A stretch of DNA of 53,405 bases, filler included, from Jimgerdemannia flammicorona (taxonomy: Eukaryota): NCBI GenBank assembly GCA_003990765.1. It is 3 parts of 3 records of this genome, joined end to end, with 100 filler letters (N's around TTAATTAATTAA, not from the genome) between each part and the next. Parts side by side here need not be neighbours in the genome. Positions count along the whole stretch, not along the records: positions 35,672 to 53,405 come from RBNJ01002433.1; 2 more parts are not named here. One strand, written 5' to 3'. Both the position numbers and the translations under genes were made by a program. The notes beneath the pieces are model-generated. The model worked only from the letters and a program-made list of their open reading frames with translations. It was not told where the DNA came from and did not search any database. Below, piece by piece: positions 4,854-49,125 of this stretch (within the stretch, counting starts at the first letter, position 1; each line of letters opens with the position of its first letter).

Positions 4854-5162
4854 TTTTTCTTCTAAATAAGAATCTTCTTGAGTATCCTTATTCATTGGTC
4901 TAGTCCTGAAAAAAATTGCTAATCCCATAACCTCTGGCAAGGGGTCGAAAAGTGATGTTTATGGGCTGGATCTTCTCTATGTATTTTGATATAATGGTGA
5001 AGAGTTGCTTCCTTTATATAGAGCAAGGGCCTGATTCTGATCTTGATCAATCAGTTGATGGTTTGAACTTCTCTGGCTTTAAAAGTCTTATAGATGAGTA
5101 GTTACTAGTGCTATATCTCTTAGAGAATAGTCCAGACAGATAGCCTACTAGTTATGGGACAT
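3766..5162 (-). pseudogene. Family A third ORF (about 465 codons, unknown function), from just after pol into the 3' LTR
   Basis: ATG at 5162 (caacATGtcc) lies 4 nt after the last pol-frame stop. It is in the same frame as ORFs 4758..4940 and 4539..4736. A 1-nt deletion near 4530 relative to the other LTR copies shifts into ORF 3766..4443. Internal stops are TAA/TAG/TGA, each one transition away from CAA/CAG/CGA/TGG. Confidence 0.7.
4854..4863 (-). promoter_or_regulatory. Polypurine tract of family A
   Basis: AGAAGAAAAA immediately precedes the TG of the 3' LTR on the minus strand. Confidence 0.65.
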
Positions 5163-7932
5163 GTTGTTATGATTTGCAGACTAGAACCTCATGGACAGTC
5201 ATCACATTTTGCTTCTCTTATATAGATTCATAGTACTTCTTGAGTCTGTTTCTATGTACCATAGTAGGCAGTATAGTCTCTGAGATTTTTCTAAGCCAAA
5301 AAGTAGTTCTCTTGATATCTTATATATAGAAGAGTTCTCCTCATTTGGGCTCCAGTTTTCACAACCATGAGGCTTCTACCATATTTTGATACAGTAGGAC
5401 CTTTTCTCCAATTTGGATGGGTTCTAGGGTCTTGTGATTCTTTTTCACATTCTTCCTTATCAGCACTTGTGACTTGATGATATAATTATCAGCCTTCTTT
5501 CTAATTTGGTGTAGCCTCTGGATTTCTGCATCAATCCATCTCCAAGTTAGGTCTAGATTTGTGGCTGAGGTTCCATCAGAATCTTCTTCTCTGAAGAGCA
5601 ATTCTCTTAGGGTAAAGTGTATACTCTGTGACTATATATCTAGTAGGACAGAGAGGGCAGTTGGGAGGTAGTTATCCCAATTCTCATATATCTCTAAGAT
5701 CTTCACCAGGATGTTCTTGAGGGTCTTGTTGGTTCTATCTGTCTGTCCATTTCCTTGAGGGTAGTATATGGTGGTCTTGATATACTGGATCTTGTATTTC
5801 TAATACATTATCTCATGAAATCTATTGACAAATTCTGTACTATAGTCTATAGTGATTTGCTTTGATGTCTTGTAGTGGCAGATGATTTCTCAGTATAGGA
5901 AGTCAGCTATAGAGAGGGCATTGACTTCTTGTAATGCTCCTGCTTCTATCTATTTGGTAAAGAGGTCTACAATAACTATAATATAGTAGTTTCCTGATAG
6001 TATTACTGGTAGTGGTCCAATGATATTCATTGCGATATAGTGGAAGGAGATAGGCTCAATTCTTGATGATCTAGGTGCCTGGTCTTACTGATCTTATTTC
6101 TATTTTTGGCACTTGTCACACCCTTTGACAAATTGGTATAGGTCTTCTTCCATTTTGGGCCACTATATAATTCTTCTTACCTTGTCATATGTATTGATTT
6201 CTTCTAGGTATCCTTACTTGTATACTTCTTTCATTACTTAATACTTCTTATATTTGGGTATTACTAGCTTTCCTCCTTTTCTAAGTGTAGTATTGCCTAG
6301 TTCAAACTGTTTCCAAGTCTGATTGATGATAGTGATTGTCCAGAGTTTGAGGTATATAGTTGGGCATCTTCTGCTACCTAAGGTAGCTGATTAATCCATA
6401 GTATAACTTCTTATTCATATTGAATAGTCTTGATGGAGGTGTTTTGAGATGTCCTTGAGAGTATATCAGCATTGGTGTTGGTTCTTTCTGAGTAGTGCTT
6501 AATAGTACAGTCATACTCTTATAGCCTGTAGATCCATCTGGTATATATTTCTTTAGGGTTCAGAGTGTAGAACAGCCAGGCAAGAGTAGAATGGTCTGTT
6601 TGAATAGTGAAGTGTTTTTTCAGCTAGATAGTAGTAGAACTTGTCTACTGTCCAAACTACTGCTAAGCATTCAAGCTTGCATGACTCGTAGTTCTGTTCT
6701 ACTCCATGGATACCTTGGCTTGCATAAGAGATGATATATTCATATCCATCTTTCTTTTGAGCTAGGACTGCTCTAAGTCCTATAGTACTTGCATCTGTCT
6801 GCAGGATGAACTCTAGGTTCCAATCTGGTCTTCTGAGGATAGGTGCCTGAGTCAACCTAGTCTTGAGTTCATTGAAGGTTTCTTGGTATTCTTTGGTCCA
6901 TTCAAATTTGATCTCCTTCTTGAGTAGCTCATAGATAGGTGCTGTAATGTTAGAGTATCCTTTGATGAATCTTCTGTAGTAGCTGGCCAGTTCAAGGAAG
7001 GCATGGACTTCTGTGGTTGTTCTGGATCTTGGATAGGCTGCAATAGCCTTGATCTTCATAGGGTCTGTATGGATTCCAGTCTGGTTGATGAGGTGTCCTA
7101 GGTAGGCGATTTCCTGAGCTGCAAACTTGCATTTCTTAGGCTTGATGTAGAGGCCATATTCCTTGAGCTTCTTGAGGGCTAGCTGTATATAGTTGATATG
7201 TTCCTATATAGTGTTGCTGAAGATGATTACATTATCAACATAGACAAAGAGCCATTTTCCAATCTCGTTGCTGAAGACTCTGTTCATTATTTGCTGAAAA
7301 CTTACTGAGACATTGCACATTCCAAATGGCATTTGCAGATAGATATAGGTGGCATCAGGTGTGATGAAGGCTGATTTCTCACTGGCATCTTGAGTGAGAC
7401 CAATCTGATGGAAGCCTAAGAATAGATCTAAGGTAGTGTAGTATTTGGCTTTGCTTCTAAGGGTGGTAAGGATTTCTTGAATATTTGGCAAGGGCTGCCT
7501 ATCCTTCTTAGTGATTGCATTGAGCTTTCTGTAGTCAATGCAGAGTCTTGGTACAAACTCTCCAGACTTGCTTCCTTTCTTTGAGGCAAGGACAATGGAT
7601 GAAGCCCAGGGACTGATAGCTTGCTTGATGATTCTAGCTTCTTCCATTTCCTTAAGTTCTGCTCACAGTCATTCTCTGTAGGCAGGTGATATGGGTCTAG
7701 CTTTCTGGTAGATGGACTTGGTATCACTAGTGTCAACTTCATAATAGTACTTGGGTTTTTAATTGTAGATATCTCCAAAGTCTGTAGTAAGTACTTCTTC
7801 ATTCTGGTACAGGATCTTGAGAAGTTGTTCTTCTAGGAGAAAGTTTTCTCCAATGGTATATGTGTGCTTATTCTGGTCCTTGTCTTTCTTGTGCTCAAGT
7901 TCAGTAATCTTGATGGCAGTATAGGCTCCTCT

Positions 7933-8343
7933 TCCAGTAGATCTAAAGCCTTGTTCTCCTCTCTTGGTCTTGATGAGTTTGATGGCTTTCATGATCTTGG
8001 GCTTCTTGATTTCATAGATCAGCATCTGGCCAATCCTGTCATACTTCTTGACTTTAAATGAGGTGGTGGGGTTGTGATTCCTGACTATGAGGAAGATCTT
8101 GCCAGTGTAATCAGGGTCAATTACTCCTCCTTCAACTAAGATTTTGCTTTTGGCCAGACTACTCCTGGTCTTGATAATTCTGGCATAGTTCTCTGGCAGC
8201 TTGACTCCAATTCTGGTGCCGAGTGGGGTGGTGGTCTGTGGTTCGAGGATAGCATCTTGAATGCTGGTAAGATCTATTCCTATGGTTCCTTCAGTCTTGT
8301 ATTCTGAGATCTTGGCTTTGGGGTAAAACTTCTTGACCTTGAG
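7933..8343 (-). pseudogene. Trimeric dUTPase domain in family A pol, between protease and RT
   Basis: Translation LKVKKFYPKAKI..GIDL..KTRSSL..GGVIDPDYTGKI..DRIGQM..RGEQGFRSTG contains all five dUTPase motifs. Confidence 0.92.
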
Positions 8344-10539
8344 GGTAATGTCTGATTCTTGTTCCTCCTCATCATCACTGTCAGCTTGAAGCTCAGAGGG
8401 CTGGTCATCTTCTTCAGCTTTCCTTTTTGCTTCAGCAGCTTCTTGCTCATACTTCTGTTGGCAGATTTTCCTGACTTCACTGATACAGGATCAGCAGTCA
8501 TTCAGGTGTTTAGAGCAGTACATCCTAGTACCATGGGGATATCATCCTTGAGGGGCATAGCTATCAATGATCTTGTTATACCACTACTCATCTATGAGCT
8601 TGGGTGTCTTGTTCTTGTTCTTGTTCACTAAGTGCATGAAGACTTCTGTGTCCTCTTCATCTTCTTCCTCTATGTCTGGTAGAACTCCTTTGTGGATATT
8701 GATAGAGACTCATACCTTTCTTCCTTTATAGTTGATCTGCATTTTCTAGGCATTGAGGTCAATGATGGCCTTGGCCTTGTAATGCCATTGGTTGCTAATG
8801 AGGATATTATAGTTAGTGGCACTTGTAACAATCACATCTACTGGAATGGTAGCTCCTCCTATCTTGATAGGGGTTTCTCAGATTTTGCTAAGGAGGATAG
8901 CTTGTATATCATCTGCTGTAATATAGACTATCTTGGTGGACTCTTCAATGTCCCAACCTAGACAGTCAATTGCCTTCTTGCTCATAAGGCATTCTCCAGC
9001 ACCAGTATCCAATAATGGTATCAAAGATATAATCTTCAATCTGACATAGAGTATAGGCTGATGTCTTGTGCTGGTCTTCAGATTCTTCACCTGAGTTTTC
9101 AGATTCTTCCTATGCATTGTGAGCTTCTATAATCTTGTACTCTTGATTCTTAGCATTAGTTACAAGTCCTACTCTCAACTACTGTCTGAAGGCAGGAACT
9201 TTGGCTAGTTGTCCAAAAGTAGCATTGATCTTCTGTTCCTTAAGATCTTTGTAGATATTATACTAATGGATCTTAGTCTTATACAGCTTCTATTTCTTCT
9301 TACTTTCACTTTCTCCTGAGACTGGAGTAGTGCCTTCAATGATTTGATGGGCAGCTTTATCTAACTCCATGTCTTGATCAATCTCCTTAAATTGGATCTT
9401 ACTTTGAATAGTGACAGTTGGGGTCTTCTTTGGTCTTCTAACTGGCTTGCTGTTACTCTTCTTGTCATAGAGCTTGGACTGGGTTCTGATACCTTCAGTA
9501 GCAGGGTAGAATTCAAGCTCCTTATAGTATTCTTCATCATCAGTGTCACCAATCTCCTTGATGACTACTGTATTGGTTTGTTCTCTAGTTCTGCTAGCAT
9601 TACTTGGTTGGACTTTGTATCTTATTTCAGTCATACAATTTTTTATATAGTGGCCTTCTTCTTTATATCTAAAGTATGTAATATTGTATTCTTCTATAAT
9701 AGCTGAAAATCTCTATACTGGTCTCCTGTTGGTGCTTCAGACTTCTCTAACAACATCACCAAGGTGCACAGTCATCTTAGCAAACTGCTTGGCAAGTTCT
9801 TCCACTGGGTCAGCTTTGGTTGCCTTGGGGGTAGGTGGGGATGATTGTCTGTTTATAACTGTAGCAGATATGATACTGGTTGGCTTTGATAGCTCTATCT
9901 TAATGCCAGTTATTTTCTCTATTGAGTATTTGGTAAGGTGTCTGGTAGTCTGATATCTCTGTGCAAAGACCACTTTCTAATTAAGAATCAGTGCAGCTGG
10001 GGTAGATCAGATTGCTAGAGCAATTTCAGAGTAAATTTCTTTGAGGAAGATTGAATCTACTATTTGTTCCTTGAGGGCATTATCATAGCCAGCCAAGACA
10101 ATCTGGTGGCAGATTTGGGTATAGAATGAGTTGGAATCTTCACTGAGTCTCTGGCAGATAGTATTAAGTTGATCCTTGAGAGCTTGCTTGATTTCTTTGG
10201 TATAGTATGTTGTTCTGAGAAAGGCCTTCATATTGGCAAGTTTGGCTACACCATTATTAGCAATAGTGGTTGTATTAAACTTGTCTCTGGCAGGCTCTCT
10301 AAGGCTGACTAGTAGAAGGGCCAATTGTGCATTCACACCAAGAACTCATATGGTAGTAAATTGTTCAAAGTCTTCAATAAAGGTCAGGATTGACTCTTCA
10401 GTAGTATATCCATAGAATATGGAGAGATATATTTCCATCTTATCTTGAATTCTTGCAGGGGTGACTCTTATAGTCAGATAGTTGTTATGGTAGTTGTTCA
10501 TTTTTCAGCTTGAAAGTGAGGAATTCATCTTGAATCACC

Positions 10540-30790: not shown

Positions 30791-31593
30791 ATCCATATTA
30801 CTAGTTGCCTTTTACTAAAAATGCTGTAGAAAGTGTTATCTAAGTCTTGTATCACTTGAATATTACCAGTGAAAGGTGATTATCAAATATATATCTTAAT
30901 ATATTTTGTAGTTATTTCTCTACTACTTTATTTTCTAAATATATATATTTTTATTTAAATATTATAGTTAAGACTTGAAATAAATAGTTTCTTTTTATCT
31001 ATACTTATAATTAATAGATATAATATAATAATTTATTAATTATTTCAATAAATTAAAAATTAAATTAATTAATTTGTTTTAAATTATATTAATATTTAAT
31101 AAGAATTTATTAAGATACCAATCTCTTTAACTTAATATAAGTATATAAGTATATGATATCTGTCTATATAATTTTATAGATATTATTAATTACTATAATA
31201 ATAATATTTAAGTATATAATTAAGAAGTTTAACAAAAATAACTATAAAGTATAAATAATCTATATAATGAATATTTTTTAAAAATATAGTTTAAAAAGAG
31301 TACTTGAAGTCTAAATTAGATATATAATATTATAAAGATAAAAAAAAGATAAAAAAGCTTTTATAGAGATTATCTTTACTTTATTAAATTCACAAGTATA
31401 AATTATAAAGTATAGAATATATTCAGAAAATATCGTTTAGAGTAATATATCAAATTAGCTTTATCTCAAGATATAGTTATTTAATATATAAGAGTATATA
31501 ATAAGAAGAATATTTGCAATTATATAAGTTATATAAATAATCTCATTAATCAGATTAATATACTTATTAGAAAAGATTAAAGATAAAGATAAG

Positions 31594-34500
31594 TATAATA
31601 ATTTTATAGTTATATTTTAGTCTTAGTATTTTTTCACATCTTTTTTCTAGTCTTTTCTTATCTTTTCTTAAATATTTTACTATATTCTAGCATCTTTTAG
31701 ATATCTAAAAATCTTCTCTTAGTACCAAGACATCACTAGAATATTCTTGTCTTTTTTCAGTACTAAGTATCTTATTTTAGCTAGTTATAGAACCTTTTGG
31801 AATATTGTAGAATTCTATTAGTCATCTTTGCCAAGAATCTATTTCTTGGTCTTTCTCTTCTTTTCTAAAATCCTTCTGGATCTTTCTTTAAGATCTTACA
31901 TATATAAATATTCTTCTCTATTTGAATAAAGCTCAGAATATTTTCTCTCAGAATTTCTTCAAAAATACTTAAACTTATAAGTATCTCTTTAAGCTACTTT
32001 ATACCCACTAGAACTATCAGATTTAGCTACTTTCTCTTAAAGAAACTAGAATGGTTATACTTAGTAGTAGTAGTATCATTGTATCTTACCTTATTAAGAA
32101 ATCTTATATAAATTTAGAAATCAATCACAACTAGTTATATGAGTCTAAAATCAACTATGAAGAACTAACATACTGTCTAGACCCCTCTGCTATAGAAGAA
32201 GTAGATAACATAGAATTACAAGTCAATCTAGAGGAAATGATTATCACTATAGTCTATTAAATTTGATAACTTCAAGTACAAATAGACTATCAGAAAACAA
32301 GACTATAGTTATATTATATTCTACTACTATATCAGTCAACTTCAAGCCACTCAAGCCAGATATGTACCTTTAATAGTTATCAAGAAGAACTGACCACAGA
32401 TATATGGATCTTCTAGTTAGATCAATACTTTGAACTCACAAGAATAGAAGAAGATATATAAGTCTAATTTGCTACCACACTTCTCTAAGAAAATACAATC
32501 ATTTGATAGTATAATTATATCATAACTACTACTATCTATTTGAATATAAGAATTCAAGATTGAAAATTCTTTAAGAAGGTCCTTTACCAGTAGTTCAAGT
32601 TTGCTAATATTATTAAACTAGTTAGAGATAAGCTAGTAAACATCAAGTAACTTAAGTCTATATAAAGTTATAATGTACAATTTCTATTAATTTTACTTGA
32701 ACTACTAGTGATATCTGAAGATAAAAAGATAGACTGCTACATCTGAGGTCTGAAAGAAAATACATAAGTCAAGGTTGAGCTAGAAGAGCCACAGATCCTT
32801 AATAAAGTTATAAGAATTACCAATAGGTTTAATGTTATTACCTTTGGTAACTACTTTGAACCAAAATACTATAAGAAGAATTACTTCAAGAACTATTATA
32901 AGAACTAATTCAAAGTAGTTAGTCCAATATCAATAGACCTAAATACTATAAACAAAAAGAATACCAAGCTTAATCTAAAAGAAAAAGACTACTTGAAGAA
33001 ATTTGAAGCTTATTTCTTCTATTACCAAACAGGATATATTGTAACCAAATATCTCAAGAAGACTAATGAACCTGCAAGACCAGTCACTATATTATCCAAA
33101 GACATATCTGTTAACCTTACTACTAGTCAATCTCAACTCAAGATCAAGAAGCTTCATTTGAAGGCTCAGATCTCTCAATGTTAATTAAAAGAAGTCATTG
33201 GTCTTGACCTACACTCTGTCAAGCAAGTTACCATTCCAGTCAAAGGTCAAACTCTAGTACCTACTGAAATTGTAGTTCAATGTTCTGAAGGACATTATTC
33301 CAGAATTATACTATAATCAGGACTTAGTATCAAATGTCATTTAAATATTAGTACTGATATCATTAATTCAGACTATTGAGAATTTCAAGTCTTACTTATC
33401 AATCAGAAGAATTAAGACTATATAGTTAAAGAAGGAGACTGAGTCATACAAATGACTCTAGAAAAAGCCAGTCAATCTAAAGTTATAAAAGTCTAAGAAC
33501 TATCTAAAACCAAGTAAGATCAGAAAGGTTTTGATAGTACTGATCAAGCAGTAAGTCTCATTGAAAATTGAGCTCAAGCTATGCTCATTTTCAAAGATCT
33601 AGTCAAAAGAAAAGAAGTTCAAGTGCTCATAGACAGTAGAGCTATAGGAAACTTCATCAACTAGAACCTCATCAAAAATATCAAGATTCTCATCAAGCCT
33701 ATACTCAAGAATGATAGTATAGTTACTACAGATAGTATACTATATATATTCTATTAAGTCAATTGTATCCAAACTATCTATCAAGATTCAGAAATATTAG
33801 AAATAAGTAGACTTTAAGATTGTATTACTAGGAGATCATAATTTGATCTTAAAAAAACTCTGACTTACTAAACACAATCTGAATATTGATTGGTATAAGA
33901 ATAAAGTTACTCTACTTTAAAAAGGAGTCAATATTACTATCAAGATAGATAAACCTATAAATAAAACCCAGATTACAATACTGTCAGCAATATAGTATAA
34001 GAAAGTACTTAAGAAGGCAGTACATATCTTTGTTGCAATTATCTGTTTTAAGAAATAAGATAAGAAACTATTAATTAATAAATATGTCAAGTTATTGCTT
34101 AAAGAATTCAAGAATGTCTTTCCAGACAAGCTACTTGGTCTATCTCCTATATAAGAAGTTAATTATAAAATTGAACTAATCTCAGAAACTATACTATCTA
34201 AGAAATATATATACTATATATCACCTCTTGAAATTGAAGTAGTTAAAAAGGAACTAAAAGAGTTACTTGTATGAGAAACTATTCAATCAAGCAAATCTCT
34301 CTATGGCTCACCAGTTCTATTTATTAAGAAGAAAGATAGTACTCTGTAAATATATATAAACTATTGTATACTCAATAAGCTTATAGTTAAAAACTAATAT
34401 CTACTACTCTTGATTGATTAAATTTTTGATGTTTTTAAGAATACTAAGTACTTTACCAAGCTAGACCTTATGTCAGGTTATCATTAAATTCAAATCAAGC

Positions 34501-35357
34501 TAGAAGATATTCCCAAGACTATATTTATAACCTCTTTTAGACTCTATAAATTTCTAGTCTAAGTATTTGGCCTTACTAATATATCTGCTACATTCTAGAC
34601 TTTAATGAATAAGATATTCAAGGATCAACTATTTATCTTCTTATTGATATATCAAGATAGTATTCTGATCTTTAGTATAATTAAAAAAGAACACCTCAAG
34701 CATATCTGAGTAGTCCTAAATATCTTGTAAATATATAAACTATATACAAAGCTTAAGAAGTATGAATTCTTCAAAGAATAAGTCAAATATCTTAGTTATA
34801 TTATCTATATAAGGAATTTAAGTAGATCTATATAAGATAGAGATAATTTAAGAATAACCTATTTCAACAAATCTTATAGAACTCTAGTCCTTTCTTAGTC
34901 TAGCTAGTTACTACTATTACTTTTTCAGAAATTTCTCTGATATTACTGAGCCACTGACTAATCTCATAAGAAAGACCTCTCACTCTAATTAATATGTACC
35001 CTATATCTAGAACCTCTTTTATCAATAAGTCTTCTAAGAACTCAAGAACTGCCTAACCCATGTTCTAGTTTTACATAATACAGATCTAAGTCTAAAATTC
35101 ACCATTATCACTAATATATTGAATTTTGCCATTAGAGTAGTTCTGTTATAAGATAATGGCAAAAGATATTGCCCTATTACCTTCAAGTCCTATAAGTTGA
35201 CTTTAGCTGAACAAAAGCTAACCACTCATAAGAAAGAGCTACTGGCAATAATATATATACTAGACTACTGATAATATTATCTAGAAGATGCTGAGTTTGA
35301 TATCATTACTGACTATCAATCTCTCAAATACATTAACACCCAATTGATCCTATTATA
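31594..35357 (+). mobile_element. Ty3/gypsy family B, copy 2 (gag-dUTPase-PR-RT-RH), decayed and interrupted
   Basis: Homologous to 594-2368. Protease VLIDSRAIGNFI ~33623, RT (YGSPVLFIKKKD, FTKLDLMSGYH, FGLTN, YQDS for YxDD) 34270-34690, RNase H (KELLAII, IITDYQSL) 35095-35345. Confidence 0.9.
33137..33544 (+). pseudogene. dUTPase domain in family B, between gag knuckle and protease
   Basis: LKIKKLH..IGLDLHS..YSRIIL*SGL..DIINSDY..VKEGD*VIQ..K*DQKGFDST are the five dUTPase motifs with transition damage. Confidence 0.85.
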
Positions 35358-35571
35358 TGTTGTAACGTAGCGGATGCTTACTCTTGAAAGTACGTTGGAT
35401 TTCTGTATCTTGAAAACTTGACTGTTCTGACTCTCGCAGAGTCTTCTTGAAGTTGCAGGGGAGGGTGGGTGAGTTCGAAGTGTATCTGCCCGCAGGCTTA
35501 CTAGTTCCTTTGCTATCTCTTTGCTTTGAACTATTTCGATCTGAGGTTTATTCACTCGAAGATACTGGGTT
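35358..35571. mobile_element. Probable end of a younger LTR element inserted after the family-B RNase H
   Basis: Abrupt switch to CpG-containing sequence starting TGTTGTAACG. Family-B homology stops there and the contig ends about 210 bp later. Confidence 0.5.
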
Positions 35572-35671
35572 NNNNNNNNNNNNNNNNNNNNNNNNNNNNN
35601 NNNNNNNNNNNNNNNTTAATTAATTAANNNNNNNNNNNNNNNNNNNNNNNNNNNNNNNNNNNNNNNNNNNN
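35572..35671. other. Artificial contig linker (N44-TTAATTAATTAA-N44)
   Basis: Same 100-nt all-frame-stop spacer (core 35616-35627). Confidence 0.97.
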
Positions 35672-36734
35672 TCCTTGCTGGTAAGGAGCACTTTAGGATT
35701 GCTTGTAATCAACTTCAGATACACTTCAAAGCTTGTTTTAGTTCGTTCAATATAAGAACGAGCAATGTTTATGGCCAGAGGGAAACAGTCGAGCTCTTCT
35801 ACAATGTGTTGTGCATTGACCATTGCATCAGCAGATAGAGTTCGTGAACCAAGCAGTAGAGAGAGGGCCTGGTCATTACTCATCTTGTCGACTTCGATTA
35901 CAGTGGCCCATGAAGAAGAAACATTATTGCGAGTTGTCACGACGACGTCTCCACCTGTTGCTGGAATATAACCGTCTACATCATTGGCATCGTCCATATT
36001 ATCCAAAAGCAGCAGCCAGCCTGTCTTCATTTCAAACCATTCGCGAATTAAATTAGCCATGACATCGCCATCGTCGGATCCTTTGGCCTCAGTAGGTATC
36101 CCAAGTTTCTTTGCCAAACTTCTGAAGGCATCGAGAGTCGCCTTCCTTCCATCAACGCGCAGCCAGAAGACGTAATGATAGGTCTCGCGGCACTGGTAAC
36201 AAAATTGCAGCATGGTTTCCGTTTTCCCCATGCCACCAATGCCTTTGAGGACTACCGGTGCGCGTGCGACTTTCGATTGGTTTCCATTGATTGCTGCCAG
36301 GATCTTTTTCATGATATCCTCTCGTCCTACGAACCGGTTTGTGGGCTTGAGCGGAACTAGGAACATTTTCTTATTTTCAACGATGGTGTTATCGATTGGT
36401 GTGGAGATGTATTGATTGAGGGTACCTGGCATTGCAAAATGAAATAGTTCAGTTATTAGTTTATCCGCTGTCAAAATTTGCACACATATACGCACTCGGA
36501 TTATTCTATCTCCTTACCATAGTTCACCGTTCGACCAGATTCGAAAGTGGTATTATTGAGTCCGAGAAACGCTGGTCCCCCGTGTGTGCTAACAGCATCA
36601 ACGTTGTTTGTCACGTTTTGCACCAAACCTTCAGCGGAGTCTCCTTGCTCGTTGGTAGTCGGCAACTGGCTGCTGATCATGCTGGCAAACAGAGTTCCGG
36701 TGGTGATGTTTGCATTATTGCTTTAGGATGACAT
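35672..36734 (-). CDS. NB-ARC (STAND) NLR-like protein, 5' part, truncated by contig end; short N-terminal extension on a separate exon
   Basis: FVGRED, P-loop GIGGMGKT, YVFWL, Walker B WLLLLDNMD, VVVTTR and LDCFPLAI. Exon 36518-36734 joins in frame to 36425 via GT-AG intron 36426-36517. The first ATG (36734) is followed by TAA at codon 4. The second in-frame ATG is at 36680. Confidence 0.85.
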
Positions 36735-37311
36735 GTCTAGTTATATAGGATATGGTTAGTTGCGCTATATGGTTTACATCTTGCGGTAACTTACTTGACT
36801 TTGTTGCGAGTGGTTGGGTTGTGAGCGTAATTTCGATTATTCCGATTATTCAAATTTGACAGCTGCCCACATGACTGCTGCGCGCCTTCCAGACCGTTAT
36901 CCGGTATTGTGTGTAACTTGCCATTATATTGGCATAACCAATCCACGTCCCAGAGTTAAACGTATGCAAACTGGTATTGGCCTTCCACACCGAAAATGCT
37001 TGCTTAATGGCCATGTTCGAAGGCCTGATGAAACTCGGCAATCGATTTTGCCAGTCGGAAAGCGGGGGAGTACTAAAATATTGGACAAAAGACCTCTTAG
37101 ACTGAAAAACATATAAGCATTCAATACTAAAATACAAAGAGAAAATAGATTCAAGTAGTTGCTTCAATCATCAGTACAATCAAAAATTTAATTGTTAATG
37201 TTAAACCTATTCCAAAAACCTAAACAAAATTAAAATAATAAATCTTATTTCCTCAATTATATAAATAATTTTATTTCTATAAATTATTTAACTAGTTAAT
37301 ATTTATATAAG

Positions 37312-37314
<3 letters not shown>

Positions 37315-37345
<31 letters not shown>
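37315..37345. repeat. (TA)n microsatellite
   Basis: About 15 TA units. Confidence 0.9.
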
Positions 37346-37347
<2 letters not shown>

Positions 37348-39425
37348 CACAAGTGCTTGAGCACTATATTATCTATTCTAGACTATGTACAGTAAAATGT
37401 TCTCATGCTATAGCAAGAGCTAGCAGCTTAGAAGAAATCAGATATATGTATATAGAGAGTTTTAGAATCTCCAACTTACTCCTCTCTGCCACTCATCCCC
37501 TTTGCTGCACAGACAATATATTCTACTCCAGCCTGCTACTGCACTCCTCTTACCCCCAATATCAGCTGATCTTGGCTTCTAAATTTCTTGAGAGATATAT
37601 CTATTTGTGATATTCTAATACTATTTCTTTAGGCTGATCTAGTCTTTATATCTTTTATCTCATTTTATTTTATTTTCTAACTTTTTTATTAATATTAACA
37701 AAAATTTATATCTTCTATTATTAGTAGTTAATTTATATCTTCTAAATATTTATATCAATTATTAGTCTAATTTTATAAAGCTACTATTTGCTAATGAGAA
37801 TATTAAAGTCAGTTATATTAATTATAAATATATCTACTGAAATAATTATTTCTCTAAACTTGATAAAAATATCTTAAATCTTCTTTACAAATATAGCTCT
37901 TATAGATCTTATTTATTATTATAAATATCAACTTTATAACCTCTTTAATTTTCAAATCTAGATACTCTATAACCTTGTTTTTGAGAGGATATTCTCTTGC
38001 TTCAGTATTAATAATAATTTTAGACATCCTTTCTTCAAGTTAGTAAGTAATATAAATAAAGATTTTACAATTATCTTTACTTTTTTCACTAGAGTCTTTT
38101 TGAGTATTTTTGACTTTTACTGTCTTTCAGTCTTAGTTCTTAGTAGTGTAATAAGCCAGCAGGGAAATATATATATCAAATTATTGTCCAGATTAATTAC
38201 TATAATTTAGCTATATATCATATTAGGTAAACCAGATAACCAAGACTATCCTATAGTATAAAGTTAATAAATAACCCAGATAGTCAAATAAGGGTACAAA
38301 GTTTTCTTAGCTATATATTGTACCAGAGTTTGAAATTTATATTCTTAATAGAAACAGTCAAATATTACCTGAAATAGCAATCTATAGTAAGGTATATAGT
38401 AACTAGATAGTAATTACAATTGTATAAAATATCTCAGAGAATTGAGTAAATAAAGCTTAGTCTGAAAAGTTCTAAATTAAAAGACAAGTCTGTCTAATAT
38501 ACTTTGAGTGATATATCTGCCAAAAACCACTTGATCTAGAAAGGATTATAATACTTAAGAGAAACACTCACTTTATAGTTACTATTTAGAAATTTGAGAG
38601 CTTCCTTTTCTACTCTCATCTACTTTCTAATAGAAAGTCTTTATCACTAAGCTCAAGTAAAGAGCTTTACTACTATTTTTGATAAGTTTGCTAATTTAGA
38701 AAGAATCTATACTATTTAAGTTATATGTATACTTTATTCAAGAAGTCTGCTAAATTTACTATATTATACAAATTTGCCTAATTAGGAAATAATGGTAAAA
38801 TTATCTGTATTATATATGAAATAAAACTTATATCTAATTTAGAGAAAAATTATTAAATATTTTGTTTCTTTTAACAAAGTAACAGAGGCTCAAGCCAATC
38901 TATATAATAGCTCCAATCTTGTAATTTACCTCTATTGAACCAGCACATTATATTTGAGAGCTCAACCAAGAAGATTTCTAAAAATCTGTATAACTTTTCA
39001 GCTTATAAGAACTTAATAGCCAAACTGAATATATTTGATATAATACTAATCTCTGCTATTATAAGAGAATTAGTTATTACTAGTATTTAGATAGAAAAAG
39101 AAGTAATTACCACAAGACTTACCAATTACCCAGTATTAGAAGAATTCCAAAAGGAGACCAGTATAGTATAGAATTCTTAATTAGTATCAGCAGACTTACT
39201 ATCAGGAGATCTGATCCAATTAGATCAACCAGACAATATAGATAACTCTGTTAGAAACTTTAATAAGCTTGTATAAAAATTAGAAAACCTCATTGTATAA
39301 GTCTGATTTCTCTTAAGAGCTCCACTAGTCTCCCTAATTGAACTATTATTAGGATCAGTAACTATAGTATTAGAAGTCAATGTTTCTATGCAACCAATAT
39401 TCAAACCTGAATTGAATATATATAC

Positions 39426-40175
39426 AAAGTATCTTATATACAAAGGTTTGCAGAGTGTGTAGAGTAAATATACAGTGAGTGAATTGTTAAATAAATGAAA
39501 GTATAGTGAAAAGGAGTAATTGGAAATATTAAGCAAAAACCAGAATACAAAAAGGCTAGATGTGGGTTTGGGCTTTTCAAGGCCCACCATTCACATATAT
39601 ATATGAAGGGGCCATTCATCTATTTATTCCAAAAGAGATGGGTGGAAGGAATGTATAAAAATCAATTAAAGATACAAAAATACAATAGAAATATCTGCTT
39701 AATAAAGAGTATGCTTGAAGGTAAAGTAATGAGTGCTGAAGGAAGGAAGTGCATTATGGCTGCTAAAACTAGTATACTTAAAACTGAACTAAATTGGACT
39801 GAAACTGGTATACTTAAAACTGGACTAAATTAGACTGAATAGGAGGCTAAGACTATAAGTGAAACTGAGTTAGGGTGAATTTCATAACTATATGGCTGAA
39901 ATGAATATTACTAGGGTGAATTACAAGACTGTATTACTGAAATGAATATTGCATAGTTCATGCCACTTTGCTGCAGTTTGAACTTCCTTTATAACTCTAT
40001 CAAAGTATCTTGCATATGAGGGTTTGCAGAGTGTATAGAGTAAATATACAGTATGTAGATTGTAAAATAAATGAAAGTATAGTGAAAAGGAGTAATTGTA
40101 AAAACCAGAATACAAAAAGACTAGATGTGGGTTTGGGCATTTTAAGGCCCATCATTTGTATATATATATGAAGAG
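39426..40175. repeat. Direct repeat pair (~180-190 bp; ~39426-39615 and ~40001-40175) with an internal 36-bp duplication; possible LTR relic
   Basis: Both copies share CAAAGTATCTT..GGTTTGCAGAGTGT..AAATGAAAGTATAGTGAAAAGGAGTAATTG..CTAGATGTGGGTTTGGGC..TATATATATGAAG. Confidence 0.7.
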
Positions 40176-40968
40176 ACCAATACTGTAGGCTTGGGAAGTA
40201 GGCAAGACTCCTAAACATAGTGTTTGTACTGCTGATCACTTGTGGGCACCTTTGAACCACCACTGACCAAACCCACAGCCCACCAAAAATTGGATAGAGG
40301 TAGTATTGCCAGAGTTGTCACTATCTGAGACAAAATGTGGTCAAGCTACCAAATGTAATACAGAAAAGCCATGGACTTCCAGTAATCAGTGAGTTGAATA
40401 ACATAGTCCAGGTAACCTGCAGATACAAGAAGGGTGGTGCTACTGATGTGAAAGGAGTGGCCATAAATACTAGTAGCCAAAAAGGTACCAGCTAACCAAC
40501 TTCAAATAGTGTTGATGAACATCAAGTAACACAAAGGCTGAGAGAGACCAATATAGAAAACCAGATCATCCAGATCAGAGGGGCAGATATAAACCATGTT
40601 ATCAATTGCTGAACAGAGATAATCAAAGTCATCAGAGTAACCCAAAAACATATCACTAGAGATGCCAGTTTTGATCTGAGGTAGATATAGAGACCAAAAT
40701 GGCCAAGAGAGTGAAAAGTCCCAGTGCCACTGGAGATGGTACTGATGAGCCAGCCAGGGTGAAAGGGGTGAAGTACTGCCAGGAGATGTCAATTTACCAA
40801 TCTGCATGAAGCCATAGAATGCTGTGCATATAGCTGCTCAAATTGTAGTACCAAATGGTATTTGGAGAGGAAGAGTAGTACAGATAGATTGTAGATATTG
40901 ACAAGTGACTGGGTGGTGCTCAAGAGAGTGAAAGGGTGTAGCGGAGTGGCTCTGAATCAATTTCAAAA

Positions 40969-41813
40969 TCAGGTTGAATGAGAGTAAAGTTGTGTGAAAG
41001 AGAGGAGGGCTCTTCTAGAGTTGTTATTTGATGGCTTATACAATATTTTGTCAAGAATTATATTAATATAGTCATGTCTATTATCTGAGTATATAGTGCA
41101 TATTCTATATCTTGTTTTGTTCTTGGTGATTGCTTTGAATTCTTTAAATTTCTCCAAGGCTTCACTCTTTACTAATAGGAAACATATATGTCTTATATAT
41201 ATAATCATTAATAAATATTAGAAAATATCTCTTACTGGAGTATGATGAGATATTTATTGGACTACATATATCAGTATGGATGAGATCAAGGATCTCCAAG
41301 GCATACTTCAATTGTTCTTCAAATATTTGCTAGGAAGCTTTATTTTTTATATATGCCTTGCAAAAGTTATCCTCTAGATATATATATGCCAGCAATCTAC
41401 TTACTGAGTCACTTCTTATTATATGTTCAAGGCTTGTCTTACTGATATATCCTAAGCATTGATATCATATATTGGACACATCAGATATAGTTGTCATATA
41501 AGCAGAGGTTTTTGCACTATTTAGTATCCCATTGATCATATAAAGATTGCTATGTTTTGAGACTGTCATTAGTGTCTTGTTGTAATTATTACCATACAGA
41601 CCATATATGATGGTGTCTTTCAGATATATATATATATCTCCTTATTACTATGAGCCATCATCTTGCCTATAGAGAAGAGGTTCTTTTCTATCTCTGAAAT
41701 ATTCAGCAGATCTTCAAGAGTAGCAGTAGACTCAATGATATTTCCATGGAGATGTATCCCCTCATTTCCCTTTTCTTGAGCATAGATGACATTATTATCT
41801 CCTAGTTTGATAA
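40969..41813 (-). mobile_element. Ty1/copia pol fragment (protease/beta-barrel, GAG-pre-integrase, integrase core), decayed
   Basis: IKLGDNNVIYA..LEDLL..KNLFSI, YQCLGY (WHxRLGH relic), LDLIHTDICSP and KSEALEKFKEF..TIYSDNRHDY (LRSDNGGEY relic). Confidence 0.82.
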
Positions 41814-43770
41814 TATAACAGTGACCCCTGAATGATGACATCAGTATAGGAGACAGCCTATCTTTACAAGCCACCAGATCAGAGCACAAGAAGATCATAT
41901 GGCATACAAGATGAGCAATGATGACCAACTGTGATTCATTGTGACCACAGTATGGGTATCTTGAGGAATATAAAAGAAGGATCAAGGAACTGCAGTAGCA
42001 GCAACCAATAAGACCCACCAATCCCAAAATAGCTCAAAGACTTACCATAAACAAAATATCTGTTGCTCACCAAACCTCAAGGTCAAGGAACTACCAAGGC
42101 ACCTCAGTTGAAGAAAGGATGTTCCAAGACATCAGAAGAGCCATGAGGATCTACTCAAGAAGGACTCCTAGTGTCAACCTGGGTACTGGTGACCCTTATC
42201 ATTATATTCTCTACTACTGTAAAATGGAAACAAGGATCACTATTGCTACTGAATGCCTCCAAATATGGCAGGAGTACAAAATAGGAAACCTCTTCTGCCA
42301 GGAGTTTCCACAGGCCAGTACTCAAGAGCTACAAGATGCCACTCCCATAGATATATGCAAAACAAGGACAGCTAAGAAGATCTATCAGATCTTCAGGCAT
42401 GCACTATGGTTGATCTTCAACTTGGAGTATGTTAGAGTCTCAGATTTCAGAGACCTGTCAGCCTGCCATATCAATGTACTAGAAGCTAGGGTGGCTACAG
42501 AAGCCCAGTCCACTATCACCCTTGATAGTGATGAAGTAGAAGACTTCTGGCATCCCATCCTCCAGAACAACCTAGACCAATTCCTACAAGAATTGATCTC
42601 AGTATTCCAAGACCCAAGCATCCAGGTTAGACCTCCTCAAGACCCCACATTTGTCCCCTATTTTGTGGAAGAGAACCTCATAGACTAGAGAGCCCCAGAC
42701 CTCCTTGTTCCCACTACTACCAAATGTGATGATGTCATTGGTGATGACATCATCTCGTATGACATATGTGAGACATGCAAAATACATGAAACATATAACC
42801 TATGTGATGATGACAAATTCACAGACCTCATTTTCTTCAAAGACATCCTGACCTCTAATGAGGATGAAGCCTCTATAGTCTTGAACATTCTGCTCTAAAG
42901 TCCTTTGGTGACACTGAATTATTCCAGCACCATTTTCCTATACCACCAAAATTATACCAGCATCCTGAACCTATACAACCATCAGTGCTAACTTTGGAAC
43001 TTAGTAGTTTTTCCTGTCCTGGTATTTTATTTTAGTTATTGGAATTTATATTTAGCTTTATATCTTAGCAACTATTGAATTATATTTTGTATAAATATCT
43101 CTCTTATTTCCTTTGAAATAAAGTCAGTCCACTCAGTATACTCAGTACAATACACACAATTTCTTGCAAGCAGTCTAAGAGATAATAAGACAGTTTAAAG
43201 ATAAGAATTTTGAGGACTATAAGACCTTGGGAAGGCACTCCAATAAGAACTTGCTTATAACAAACTTGAGTTAGTCTAAGAGATACACCTTGAAGAGAAT
43301 CTGGCATATTTGAAGGACTCAGCAACCACTATATAACAACTTGGTGCCCATTGACTGGTGATTCAAGATGAATCCCTCACTTTCAAGCTGAAAAATGAAC
43401 AACCACTACAACAACTACTCTGACTACAAGAGTCACCCCTGCAAGAATTCAAGATAAGATAGAAATATATTCCTCCATATTCTATAGATATACTACTGAA
43501 GAGTTAATCCTGACCTTCATCAAAGACTTTGAACAATTTGCTGCTGTATAAGCTCTTAGTGTAGATGCAAAATTGGCCCTTCTACCAGTCAGCCTCAGAG
43601 GACCTGCCAGAGATAAGTTCAATACAGCTACTATTACTGATAATAGTGCAGCCAAACTTGCCAACTTGAAGGCCTTCTTCAGAATAATATACTATACTGA
43701 AGAGATCAAGTAAGCTCTCAAGGATAAACTCAATACTATCTGCTAGAAATTCAGTAAAGATCCCAACTGT
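41814..43770 (+). mobile_element. Third family-A copy: 5' LTR (41814-43338), PBS (43342) and start of gag, truncated
   Basis: Reverse complement of 10130-12139. It contains ORF 42119..42688, homologous to 3766..4443. The LTR ends TATAACA and is followed by ACT-TGGTGCCC. Confidence 0.92.
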
Positions 43771-45749
43771 CAGAAGGTCATCTATCAATAGAAGACTTAG
43801 ACTAATATATAATTATATATATAAATAAATAATCAATATAATATATAAAATATTATATTATATATAATATCTTATTATCTGAGAGATAATTCAGCAGTTA
43901 GATCATTTTTGTCATCAACTACCACTATTGATTTCTCAGATTCAGCTATATAATTATAAATAATTATTTTATAAATTATATACACAAGAAAAATTAGCAA
44001 TTCTTGAAAAATATATATATCTAACACTAGTATTTCTTGGACAAATAGTTTCATATGAAGTATATTTAAGAATATTGTAATGTGGCTGATTGCAAAACTT
44101 GCAAAGCAGTTCAATAAGAGTGATGACTTGATATTAAAATATCAATATTAGAATTAGTCATACAATATATATTATATTATATTACTTATATATATATAAT
44201 CAATCTTAGCTTTAAATCAGTAGAAAACTTTAAAACTTACTAGAGTTGTTATCCTCCTCAGATACAACAAGTGCAGATGGTAAGGACATTGTGGTTCAGG
44301 CCTCAATATACCATTTCCCCTTACCAAAGAAGCATATCAAGGTCTTGGCATCGAATTTGGTATCAGGTGCATGAAGAGAGTGAAGGATAGTGTGATCCTT
44401 GACCTTGACAAAGTTGTATCCATATATATGGAGATTCTTGTATTGAAATGAAGACAATATATATTCATTAACTACTACAGTACTATCACCATATAAGATA
44501 GTAAATGATGAGATAATAAACTATTTTTTTTTTTTTTAAAATAAAAAAAAGACATATCATATTAGAAAATATTGAAGTTTCACATCAGAACATTAAAATA
44601 ATATATATATTTACCTCATTCATACTCAATAGTATTATATACTTATTTGATATTTTTTCTAGATTATTTCCTGGGATAAGTATTATTTCACCATGACTTA
44701 GACTAAATGGCTTAGATGTCATTTCAAGTCACTTCTACTCTGCCTGAGTTACAGCAGTCTTGATTTATGATCTTTCACCTTAATCAATCCTTATATGCTT
44801 TTCAGTAGAATTGACAGCATGACTGTTAAATAAAAATAAAATAAAAAAAAATAAAATCAATTTTATATATTCAAAATAAGTGAGGCATACTGGTGACAAT
44901 AAACCTACCTCTGATATGGTGCAAATGGCTGCATTCCAATACTAGCAGATGAAAATGAAAGAATATGATTTCTTCCAATATTTTCAATTTCTGTCAAGCC
45001 AAAGTTTGGAGATCCAGTCATATTGCTCATAATGTCAGTAAGTGGGGTGGAAGTAGAGGGTGGATTTGTTAGAGTTGAAGAAGTTACAAAGGTTGAGCTG
45101 ATATATTGTATTTGGCCTACAGTATTGGATGGGAGTGATCTGCTTTCTCTACCCATTATATGGAGAGTTTTAGCCCAAAAATTGAGCTCTCTAATAATTA
45201 AGAAAATAATTTAACAGTAGTTAATGACTATAGTAGTTTAATGCTTAGCTTGAGTATATAATCATTATAAATATACTTTACATAGAGGTATTACTTACAG
45301 CTTGCTGAATAGATTCACTTTGTTGTGGCTACTGGAGGATTTATCATATTTGTGGGTACTGAGCAAGAGCTACCAAATGTTGTAGCAATTCAGGATCCAT
45401 GACCAAATATCAGGAAAGACTTCTGAAATATATTTCTTAAAGAAATGTAAATAATATTTAATTTGTTGGGGGATTTTTGGGGGGTTTTTTTTTGATAGAA
45501 ATTGTCACCTGTGATAGCAATCTATAAATATATACAAAGTTGAAGATTGTCTTCCCAAGTGAAGTCCTTTTCCACATATATATCTCTCAGCAAGAATCTG
45601 AGAGCCTATGACAAGTTTTGTTCACAGAACTGACTTATTACTAACTGTCTCTTTTGTATGTATAATATGTAATATACTCAAATAAATTATATTTACCTGC
45701 TCAGATGCACTAGCAACCAAAGGCTTGGCAGTAGGGTGAATAGAGACTT

Positions 45750-46205
45750 AGTGTTAGAGAAAATGGAACTTAGTGGTAGAGGGGACTATGAAGTGATTGG
45801 AAAATGGAAATATGATATAAGGATTGAAAAATAAAAACTTGATAGTAGAGGAAAGAAACCCTTTTTGCAGAGGACAGAGTGAACTTGTTAGCAGTAGAGG
45901 CAACAGAAACTTTGGTGGTAAAGAGAATGGAAAATGGAAATTTGACAATAGAGAGAAGGAAAACAATAACTTGACAGTGAAAAAAATGGAAAATCAGCAG
46001 TAGAGAGAATAGTGGAGACAGAAACTTTATGAAGAGAATAGAATCTTAGCAAAAGAAATGGAAACTTGGTAAAGAGAATGGAAATTTGGTAAAGAAAATG
46101 GAAATTTAGTAAAGGGAATAGAAGGGAATGGAAATACATTTGGTAAAGGGAATAAAAATTTGATGAAGAGAATAGAAATTTGGCAAAGAGAATAGAAACT
46201 TATAT
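45750..46205. repeat. Degenerate purine-rich tandem repeat (AATGGAAA(C/T)TTGGTAAAGAG-like, ~19-30 bp)
   Basis: Repeated GAATGGAAA / TTGGTAAAG words. Confidence 0.65.
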
Positions 46206-46328
46206 AAGTTGAATCTGATTGATCTTATGGCTAAATGGAATGATTTATAGATATGATGTGTCTTGATAAATGTGATGCATCTTGACACATATGATGTATA
46301 TATAGCCTTGAGTAATGTAAGTATCCAC

Positions 46329-46500
46329 TTTTTTGATCAAATTTCATCAATTCACTTTTTTTGGTCAAATTTCATCAATCTAATTTTTTTTATCAAATAT
46401 TTCATCAATCCAATTTTTTTGGTCAAATTTTTATCATCAATCCAATTTTTTTGGTTAAATTTTTATCATTAATCTATTTTTTTTGATCAAATTTCTTGTC
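46329..46500. repeat. ~28-31-bp tandem repeat, about 6 copies
   Basis: Unit TTTTTT(G)GTCAAATTTCATCAATCCAA. Confidence 0.75.
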
Positions 46501-46689
46501 GATCCATGATTTGATAGTTTTGACCCTGATGGCAAACTATATAGGGGAGCCCCCTCACTGATATCTTCTTTATCATATTGACATACTACTATCAAAGAGA
46601 AAACAATATATTGTTGATATTACAAAAATAATAAAAACTCTTAACTAAATACTCTAAATTTAAACAACTAAAGATATTGAAGAGTAGAA

Positions 46690-49125
46690 TGAGATCTTTG
46701 CAGAAAGTGAGACTGATGAGAAATCAGAAGAGAAAAATATTCAGAAAAATAAATAGAATGAGCTTTTGACTAAGATGCAATCTACTAAATCTGAAAAAAA
46801 AACTCATCTATATATATCTTATACTAGTTTATCTAAAATATTGAAATATTATCAAAAATTATATATAAAAGAATTAGAAGTAGCTGTAATAGAAATATAG
46901 AACATTATTTCATTCTTTCAAAGAACTACAATTTCTGAGACTATAGATACTATAGAGACTATATCTGATAAAAAGTTAAGAGTAGAAAAACAGATAATTA
47001 AAGAAATTGAAAAATATCTTAATAGTTCAAAATCTATCAGTATTGAAGAAAAAGCCAAATTTTAAGCTATTCTTTAATATTTATATCTATATCAAACAAG
47101 AATGATAAAAAGTAATACAAGTTTACAAGTTGCTACTACTAATAGTAAAATAAAATACTAAATATATTGTCTTATTAACTAGATCAAAGAGTATATAGCT
47201 GATAGAAAAATTAAACTATTATACAGAGAAAAACATCTAAAGATTAGAAATCTGTTGACTGAGAATGATATCTATTTAACTATTAGATCTTAACTACATA
47301 CTTATAAATTTGGTATTACTTCTCAAATTTTCTAAAAGAATATTAATGAAGTTATTCTTCCTAGTATTAGAATTTTGAATGAAAAAAAATATAACAATAA
47401 AAAGACTACAACTAGATGACTTCTATTTCTTAGATGAATTTACTCAGAAACAAAGAATAGAGTATATTTTGATAGTTATGAAAGAGTAGATATTATTAAA
47501 TATCATTAAATATTTTTAGAGCAAATGAAGATATATAGAAGATATATGATCTGGATAGCTATTGCTAACTTACTATCAGAGATTTCTGCATCATTATCAA
47601 AAGCTCTATTAAAGGCTCTATTGAATACCCTATCAAAGTCTCTGTTATTATCAACAGAGATATCTGTATTGATATCATTTTTATTGAATTTGAAGGCTCT
47701 ATCAAAGGCTCTGTTATTACTATCAGAGATGTCCATATTAGAATTATCTTTATGGAATTCAAAGGCTCTATCAAAGGCTCTATCATTACTATCAAATATG
47801 TCCACATTGATATCATCTTCATAGATTTCAAAGACTCACTCAAAGGCTCTATTATTGTTATCAAAGATGTCTACATTGATATCATCTTTATGGACTTTGA
47901 AATTGTCATCAGAGATATCTACATTATCATCAAAGGCTATGAAAAGCTCTATTATTACCATCAGAGATATCTGTATCATTATCAAAGACTCCATCAAAAG
48001 CTCTGTTGAGAGGGCTATTAAAGGCTCTATCATTTTTATCAGGAATATCTACATTATTGTTAAAGACTCTATCAAAGACTTTATCAATATCAAAGACCTG
48101 GCTATCAGTATCAACACTACCTTCTTTTAATCTTAAAATCCCTACTCTCTTGGATGATAAGTATCAATTGATAATTTATACTTATGATGAGAGTATTTTT
48201 TACTCATATAATTTTTAGAATATAATCTGATATCTAACTAGAGAAATACTACTATATAAAAAAGATAGAGAAAGATCTATTATAGTTAGTTAATTTATTT
48301 CAGAAGTTGATAGACCATTAAAATATACTTGTAAAGATGGTATAATCTTAGAAGCTAGAGAAATCATCTATTCTGAAAAAAATCATTAGAGTTATTAGAC
48401 TAGTGTAGATATTACTAGCAATTCAAAAAAGCTATAACAATTTATCAGAAAAATTTTCCTAACTATAATGCTTTATAGATATTTTATAACTTATCAAATT
48501 ATGGATATTTTGCTAATACTATACTGCAAGTGAGCAGTATGAATCTTAATTCTGGTAAAAAGAAAGTACTGCTAAGAGATACTATCTTTAATAGTATAAA
48601 ACAAACATGATTTTCTCTGATAACTATTTTAATGAGAATTTGAGAGAACTGGCTAAAGATATAAAGCAAAACTAATAGAGAGAGCTCTTTAGCCAGAGGG
48701 TCTGTTGAAATCTGTGAGAAATGCAAAACATTTACTACTAAAGACTTTATATAATTGAAATACTATACTCAAAGAATTTTGAAGCTATAATCTGATTTTA
48801 AAACTTAAAAGTCTTTATTAGAGAAGATTGCAGAAGAAGGTCAAAATATTATCTTTTATTTAAAGTTTCATTGTAAACTTAACTTTATTGAGATGTATTA
48901 GAGAAAAGCAAAGTAGTATATTAGGAAATATTATAACTATACCTTTAAAAGTCTTTGAGAAATAATATCTATAGCTTTAGATTTAATAAAGCTTATACTT
49001 ATTTAGAAGTTTATAAGAAAAACTTTTAGATATATAAATACTTATAGATAGGAACTTACTGGACTTAAAGTAGAAAGATAGATAAAGAAGTATAAATTAC
49101 ATAGATGGATACCTTTGAATTGAGA
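46690..49125 (+). mobile_element. IS630/Tc1/mariner-type DDE transposase, decayed
   Basis: VYFDSYERVDII..IFLEQM (YFDGHERxDV relic) ~47460, YTYDESIF (HDES relic) ~48180, and IFYLKFHCKLNFIEMY* (PKFHCELNxIE relic) ~48850. Many stops. Confidence 0.78.
47555..48120. repeat. ~69-bp degenerate tandem array inside the transposase relic
   Basis: AAGGCTCTATCAAAGGCTCT recurs (47693, 47762). The minus frame shows 23-aa units such as DISDSNNRAFDRAFKFNKNDINT. Confidence 0.75.

Follow-up and report, generated by a model that had tools for sequence, protein, structure and literature searches.

The window analysed here is a stretch of 53,405 nucleotides, filler included, from the genome of Jimgerdemannia flammicorona (GenBank assembly GCA_003990765.1), and it contains an NLR-type gene on the minus strand (Table 1). 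A sequence-only reading of the window had described this gene as an NB-ARC protein with no effector domain and a short leader resembling an amyloid-signalling motif. The NB-ARC assignment was confirmed by a match of exon 2 to PF00931 (E 9.1e-8; 32.1 bits against a cut-off of 23.5), and exon 1 is without any Pfam match, in agreement with the absence of an effector domain. The gene is also truncated as described: contig C2433 begins at window position 35672, and the window copy meets this contig end before any C-terminal repeats, which the paralogues on C1695 and C246 bear as TPR_10/TPR_12 arrays. Around the gene, at window positions 3766-8490 and 31000-49000, lie decayed LTR-retrotransposon frames (RT/RNase H-like and dUTPase-like, as judged by eye) and AT-rich repeat remnants.

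Table 1. Features of the NLR-type gene, in window coordinates and listed in the direction of transcription
Feature	Position	Strand	Evidence or remark
5'-UTR intron, its end 2 nt ahead of the conserved start	36737..36794	-	Sequence shows GTAAG donor, CTAAC, TAG acceptor
Conserved family start codon (M-S-S-Q/E)	36732..36734	-	Same ATG in 13/13 copies shown
Coding exon 1: low-complexity leader and motif	36518..36734	-	Splicing and copy comparison; Met of the sequence-only reading at 36680
Premature TAA at codon 4, in the window copy alone among copies shown	36723..36725	-	Assembly sequence
Motif pseudo-repeat 1, core GGPAFLG	36561..36620	-	Alignment A2
Motif pseudo-repeat 2, exon-1 part; GG 15 residues past the first GG	36518..36560	-	Matches caspase tail core GGAIHFG
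Phase-1 intron, 92 nt, splitting the last glycine codon of repeat 2	36426..36517	-	Sequence, copy comparison, read contigs
Remainder of repeat 2, opening exon 2	36408..36425	-	Sequence
Exon 2, NB-ARC domain, open to the contig end	35672..36425	-	PF00931 E 9.1e-8; translation
P-loop in NB-ARC exon 2	36220-36243	-	Translation
N spacer between contigs	35572..35671	.	Window lacks the gene's 3' part, which in paralogues encodes DUF7779 and TPR

The intron proposed at 36426-36517 stood up to comparison. It is 92 nt long, runs from GTAAG to CCAG with a branch-like ACTAAT at 36460, and its excision puts the exon starting at Met 36680 in frame with the NB-ARC exon. In 13 copies its boundaries are the same, with lengths of 81-93 nt that cover all three phases. 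Contigs from two sequencing runs, which we guessed to be RNA, leave out 92-93 nt here, and their coverage over 36440-36487 is zero; most of these contigs are 90-99% or less alike and so show splicing of the family rather than of the window copy. None of the runs listed as containing the sequence is recorded as RNA.

The start codon assigned at 36680 had to be moved, as a conserved ATG lies 18 codons upstream at 36734, and Met 36680 is an internal methionine missing from copies L002, L003, L010 and L011. In a run X1 contig that derives from a related copy, 36736 is followed directly by 36797, which supports the 5'-UTR intron. The count of 85 residues before FVGRED is exact from Met 36680; the leader of the family is about 103 residues long. 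Codon 4 is CAA or GAA in 12 of 12 other copies shown and TAA in the window copy (1 of 13). The window copy may be a null allele, contain a sequencing error, or reinitiate at 36680 after a three-codon frame. Translation can reinitiate after short upstream frames. Because of the TAA at codon 4, the window copy is probably either a null allele or the source, via reinitiation at 36680, of a shortened protein that keeps the motif.

The leader is N/G/T-rich and low in charge, as first described: its 41-residue motif stretch is 54% N/G/T/S/Q with three charged residues, compared with 27% N/G/T/S/Q and 24% charged residues in the NB-ARC part. The motif begins about 40 residues into the family leader. 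In each of its two pseudo-repeats a hydrophobic strand leads through a GG turn into a second strand, which is followed by a glycine; the two GG pairs are 14-15 residues apart, and repeat 1 contains a conserved proline. Conservation among paralogues, on which the proposal depended, is apparent in alignment A2. Among 10 close copies, pN/pS is 0.03/0.15 in repeat 1, 0.08/0.15 in the leader upstream and 0.05/0.12 at the start of the NB-ARC domain, while pN is above pS in repeat 2 (0.15 vs 0.07); the pairs behind these values are non-independent and broken copies are included.

The leader belongs to an NB-ARC-TPR family, for which two protein searches of the species' own genome returned at least 25 and at least 26 places (at least 33 distinct). 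We inspected 31 of 33 family places. NLR-body sequence was found in the flank of 23 of these 31 copies, and in none of the 31 does a long frame terminate with the motif. The frame stays open up to the contig end in seven close copies, with stops or frameshifts in others; no intact full-length NLR with the window's motif was seen among them, the open copies running off their contigs. Longer paralogues contain NB-ARC, DUF7779 and TPR, one with an additional kinase. Five copies (L002, L003, L004, L007 and the window copy at 35672) share the codon at which they break off at a contig end, which suggests a collapsed near-identical 3' region and recent expansion. One paralogue in a second assembly (P0003) is modelled with a Zn2Cys6 domain ahead of the motif, which is either a fusion or a gene-model error.

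Two tandem genes on contig C2515 (L050:6287-6632 and L050:8846-9172) carry exon 1, the motif and the intron, and stop after about 40 codons. They encode proteins of 80-90 residues, with counterparts (P0049 and P0050) annotated in the second assembly, and could represent NLRs that have undergone deletion, or else decoys or adaptors. These motif-only copies also contain a TPR-like second frame, which was rejected as it lacked Pfam support, and AlphaFold yielded no structure for the 80-residue motif-only protein.

The family was expected to be that of an early-diverging fungus, and its named homologues are indeed from Jimgerdemannia flammicorona, Endogonales, Mucoromycota. The AT-rich repeats had at first pointed to an ascomycete scarred by RIP, an idea that these homologues ruled out. 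A profile search of 1.84 billion representatives gave five matches, three of which are Jimgerdemannia proteins bearing the motif; the other two are repeat proteins and were discarded as noise. No match to the motif was found among solved structures or NCBIfam families. We compared 16 instances of the motif with known amyloid-signalling patterns, and, in line with the suggestion of a new motif family, it is not a member of HRAM, PP, PUASM or RHIM. The RHIM and BASS3 core, (I/V)Q(I/L/V)G, occurs in none of the 16. The sigma motif comprises about 40 residues, in which two submotifs are repeated three times, and goes with SesA/SesB effectors; the pieces of the window family's motif matched no Pfam family of this kind, short queries being a weak test. 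Likewise, none of the 16 contains the PP core NxGxQxGxN or the PUASM pattern FxGxGxQxxGxGxF, the latter found with a PNP_UDP effector (PMC9815663). The HRAM pattern, defined in PMC5485727 by hydrophobic residues at 3, 6, 8 and 14 and Gly at 17, fits one instance, which is not the window's, while 12 of 16 fit an HRAM-like pattern that shares the hydrophobic residues at 3, 6 and 14 with the HRAM/NLR12 group, leaves position 8 free and has Gly at 16, not 17.

The sequence-only reading had seen no partner effector in the window, and we likewise found no caspase in the window or at the NLR loci; the candidate partner lies on another contig, C814. A PF00656 search of the genome gave 13 matches, of which the 11 with long open frames were scored by profile. 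A profile built from NLR-side motifs alone picked one of these 11 caspases, an intact Peptidase_C14 protein on C814, and the match falls at its extreme C-terminus. This is a separate protein with a matching C-terminal motif, as anticipated, although it is a caspase-like protease and not a HeLo, MLKL or hydrolase protein. Searches of the same genome for HeLo (PF14479) and MLKL_N (PF22215) returned no match, with the MLKL control also silent and intron-split genes able to escape. Of four refuting conditions set beforehand, the three concerning splicing, conservation among paralogues and a matching effector left the amyloid-motif reading standing.

The C814 protein matches PF00656 with an E-value of 2.5e-15 and keeps the His-Gly and Cys catalytic motifs, with His-90 and Cys-140/141 invariant in seven homologues; MALT1 and metacaspases are the top folds for its predicted model. 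Judged by its sequence, it is a caspase-like protease with catalytic His and Cys. It is identical to an NCBI entry, and the species' second assembly encodes a counterpart in which a single residue, not in the tail, is different. A third partial repeat is visible in the tail, including a 19-residue doubling; AlphaFold gave no structure for the tail (pLDDT under 50). No NLR was found within about 10 kb either side of the caspase. Its neighbours are a kinase and a giant URGCP-like GTPase, whose adjoining frames of 1688 and 789 residues (L078:3-7481) make it a possible partner or substrate.

The conserved two-repeat motif matches the tail of this intact Peptidase_C14 protein specifically. On the refined NLR-motif profile the C814 tail scores 25-26 bits, which was reached by none of 1000 residue shuffles (maximum 9.9-10.7) and none of 1000 three-residue block shuffles (none above 8.9); reversal of the tail brings its score to -0.4, and none of the 10 remaining caspase tails exceeds 3.0 bits. 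With the two motif-only copies removed from the profile, the tail scores 19.9 bits (0/1000 shuffles), and with a profile from the window's close subfamily alone it scores 10.4 bits (1/1000 and 0/1000 shuffles). The C814 tail was the sole profile match among 4194 six-frame ORFs from 25 caspase loci (E 3.2e-5). When the tail was used in turn as query against the 231-Mb genome, three places came back: C814 itself, a motif copy on C2515 (E 0.23) and the paralogue C5315, whose own profile score is at background. Of the nine residues identical between NLR and caspase in the two printed alignment blocks, six are encoded by different codons, which argues against recent DNA capture.

From this match, and by analogy with fungal amyloid pairs, we lean towards a role for the leader as a homotypic amyloid-type recruitment motif that would link NB-ARC-TPR receptors to the C814 caspase tail. 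The window's own motif resembles that tail modestly in a pairwise comparison (score 45, 7/1000 shuffles), and the best matches come from the motif-only copies on C2515. The conserved proline of repeat 1, the excess of pN over pS in repeat 2, the many broken copies, the background score of C5315 and the absence of an NLR near C814 also count against this role. Genome motif searches with single peptides and one DNA pattern returned solely NLR-side or motif-only places, not the C814 caspase. When repeat 1 alone was compared with C814, 148 of 500 shuffles reached the score, while repeat 1 matched the tails of the C1797 (0/500 shuffles) and C3151 (1/500) caspases, in 64 tests in all; the partner of the window's subfamily could therefore be another caspase. 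The C1797 caspase (L067:1-2508), whose tail matches repeat 1 and includes the sequence VQIG, is encoded head-to-head with a gene for ankyrin repeats.

The preference of repeat 1 for other tails leads to an alternative that we consider unlikely but credible, in which the shared stretch is a docking tag between NLR and caspase that works without amyloid (by short beta-strand exchange or otherwise), or in which the true partner is another caspase or effector. Folded adaptor domains stand at this position in bacterial relatives, and genome searches score best candidates only, both of which would suit this alternative. However, the composition of the motif, the two-fold spacing of its GG turns, its placing at the NLR N-terminus and the effector C-terminus, and the greater number of repeats on the effector side all follow the amyloid pairs described in PMC9815663, and the whole motif is matched by C814 alone among the ORFs of the caspase loci.

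Among 42 homologues of the C814 caspase, the top six are Endogonales proteins or close to them. Besides C814, P0011 alone beats all shuffles (7.9 bits, 0/1000); P0010 from Endogone (24/1000), P0012 (37/1000) and P0009 are at background, P0008 likewise does not beat all shuffles, and the other 36 score at most 0.1. Several of those 36 (eight scanned) bear EAD7 or TCAD2 where the fungal proteins bear low-complexity tails, and the nearest non-fungal relatives of the C814 caspase have EAD7 or TCAD2 at the same C-terminal position.

A second candidate pair consists of the C246 NLR and the C1803 caspase, which have the stretch NNIAGSVF in common, with six of eight codons different and no shuffle of 500 reaching the score. 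The C246 motif class also scores on the C2607 caspase. This pair is weaker, since the C246 NLR was missing from the results of a reciprocal genome search. The C246 gene (L052:432-3839) is an intact, intronless NLR of 1136 residues that has a short motif unlike the window's, then NB-ARC, DUF7779 and TPR and, at the C-terminus, a protein kinase. Bacterial-type caspases without introns number about a dozen (L063-L074, L092 and L093); most end in G/N-rich tails of beta type that differ from one another and may represent several motif classes. On C74 (L111:1092-2500) and C17806 (L093:368-2532), broken pieces of the window's NLR family are found on the same strand as a caspase gene and no more than about 1 kb from it, hinting at older gene pairs.

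Most caspases of the genome have some G/N-rich tail, and the motif might self-assemble just to scaffold the NLR oligomer, its likeness to the caspase being a shared ancestral style of G/N-rich beta-arch tail. We regard this as improbable: one of 11 tails scores, far over composition-matched shuffles, and the second motif class picks other caspases, although a scaffold role has been proposed for partnerless motifs (PMC9815663) and would suit genes that are not adjacent. Least probable to us is a functionless relic linker of an ancestral caspase-NLR fusion or gene pair, copied with a decaying repeat-like family, which would agree with the broken NLR pieces on C74 and C17806, the stops in many copies (the window copy included) and the lack of purifying selection on repeat 2 among close copies, but is opposed by a pN/pS of about 0.2 in repeat 1, residues kept in different codons between NLR and caspase, a caspase and tail intact in two assemblies, and spliced family contigs in two runs.

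NLR-to-caspase amyloid-type signalling in Endogonales is, by a modest preference, the best reading of these sequences. By analogy with the NWD2/HET-S model (PMC9815663 and PMC12881547), ligand binding to the TPRs would cause the NLR to oligomerise, and the clustered N-terminal motifs would form a beta-arch or beta-solenoid seed on which the caspase tail, with its three pseudo-repeats, would be templated. The protease domains clustered in this way would be activated by proximity and cleave substrates, resulting in defence or cell death, and many receptors would act on one effector. A broader picture, which we put forward tentatively, is that Endogonales may possess an amyloid-coupled inflammasome-like pathway in which an expanded set of NB-ARC-TPR sensors would activate bacterial-type caspases via prion-like tags, with orthogonal motif classes (the window's to C814; that of C246 to C1803 and C2607) as parallel channels and the motif-only proteins as adaptors or decoys.

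In animal inflammasomes, caspase recruitment by a STAND sensor goes through a homotypic adaptor. Bacterial caspase-EAD conflict systems are alike in this respect, EADs being the proposed homotypic adaptors (PMC7159879), whereas the adaptor proposed here is a low-complexity beta-type motif and theirs, as in inflammasomes, is a folded helical domain. In the case of the bacterial BASS motifs on CHAT effectors, an amyloid motif couples an NLR to a caspase-fold protease (bioRxiv 10.1101/2020.01.06.895854); those are adjacent bacterial genes with CHAT effectors, while the system here, known from sequence, would join unlinked genes of a fungus through a Peptidase_C14.

Like NWD2/HET-S (HRAM), PNT1/HELLP (PP), sigma and PUASM, the window gene has a short, G/N-rich N-terminal motif of polar and hydrophobic residues on an NLR without a folded effector domain, and a related motif lies at the C-terminus of a separate effector (PMC9815663 and PMC5485727). 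The NB-ARC-TPR architecture is that of PNT1 (PMC12881547). NLR and effector genes are usually adjacent, with published exceptions, and the window NLR family and C814 are unlinked; dozens of NLR-side copies with few effector-side ones and no adjacency are also seen for HRAM/NLR12 and agaricomycete NLR05/08/22/29/44 (PMC9815663). Unlike the described fungal pairs, the window family has a signature of two GG-centred repeats 14-15 residues apart and a motif some 40 residues into the leader, its host belongs to Mucoromycota and not Dikarya, and its candidate effector is a Peptidase_C14 protease instead of HeLo, HeLo-like, SesB or PNP_UDP; this protease also sets it apart from HRAM.

In the literature searched, fungal amyloid signalling is reported for Ascomycota and Agaricomycetes, where it drives pore-formers, lipases or phosphorylases. 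That literature, in which most subscription papers were not included, held no report of Peptidase_C14 effectors for fungal motifs or of amyloid signalling in Mucoromycota, and a search for amyloid together with Jimgerdemannia found nothing. Neither Jimgerdemannia nor Endogone appears in the main text of PMC9815663 or the 11 supplementary files searched (files 9 and 10 lay outside the search and file 2 was covered in part). One survey reports no NLRs in the Mucoromycotina genomes examined (PMC7928374).

The NLR motif and the C814 tail are a concrete pair of peptides open to existing Podospora assays. If the proposed coupling is true, a motif pair in Mucoromycota would mean either that the mechanism predates the Dikarya split or that it was acquired separately, and the effector classes of fungi would come to include a protease. 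The pair would also provide a direct parallel to NLR-caspase inflammasomes, with amyloid replacing death-fold domains.
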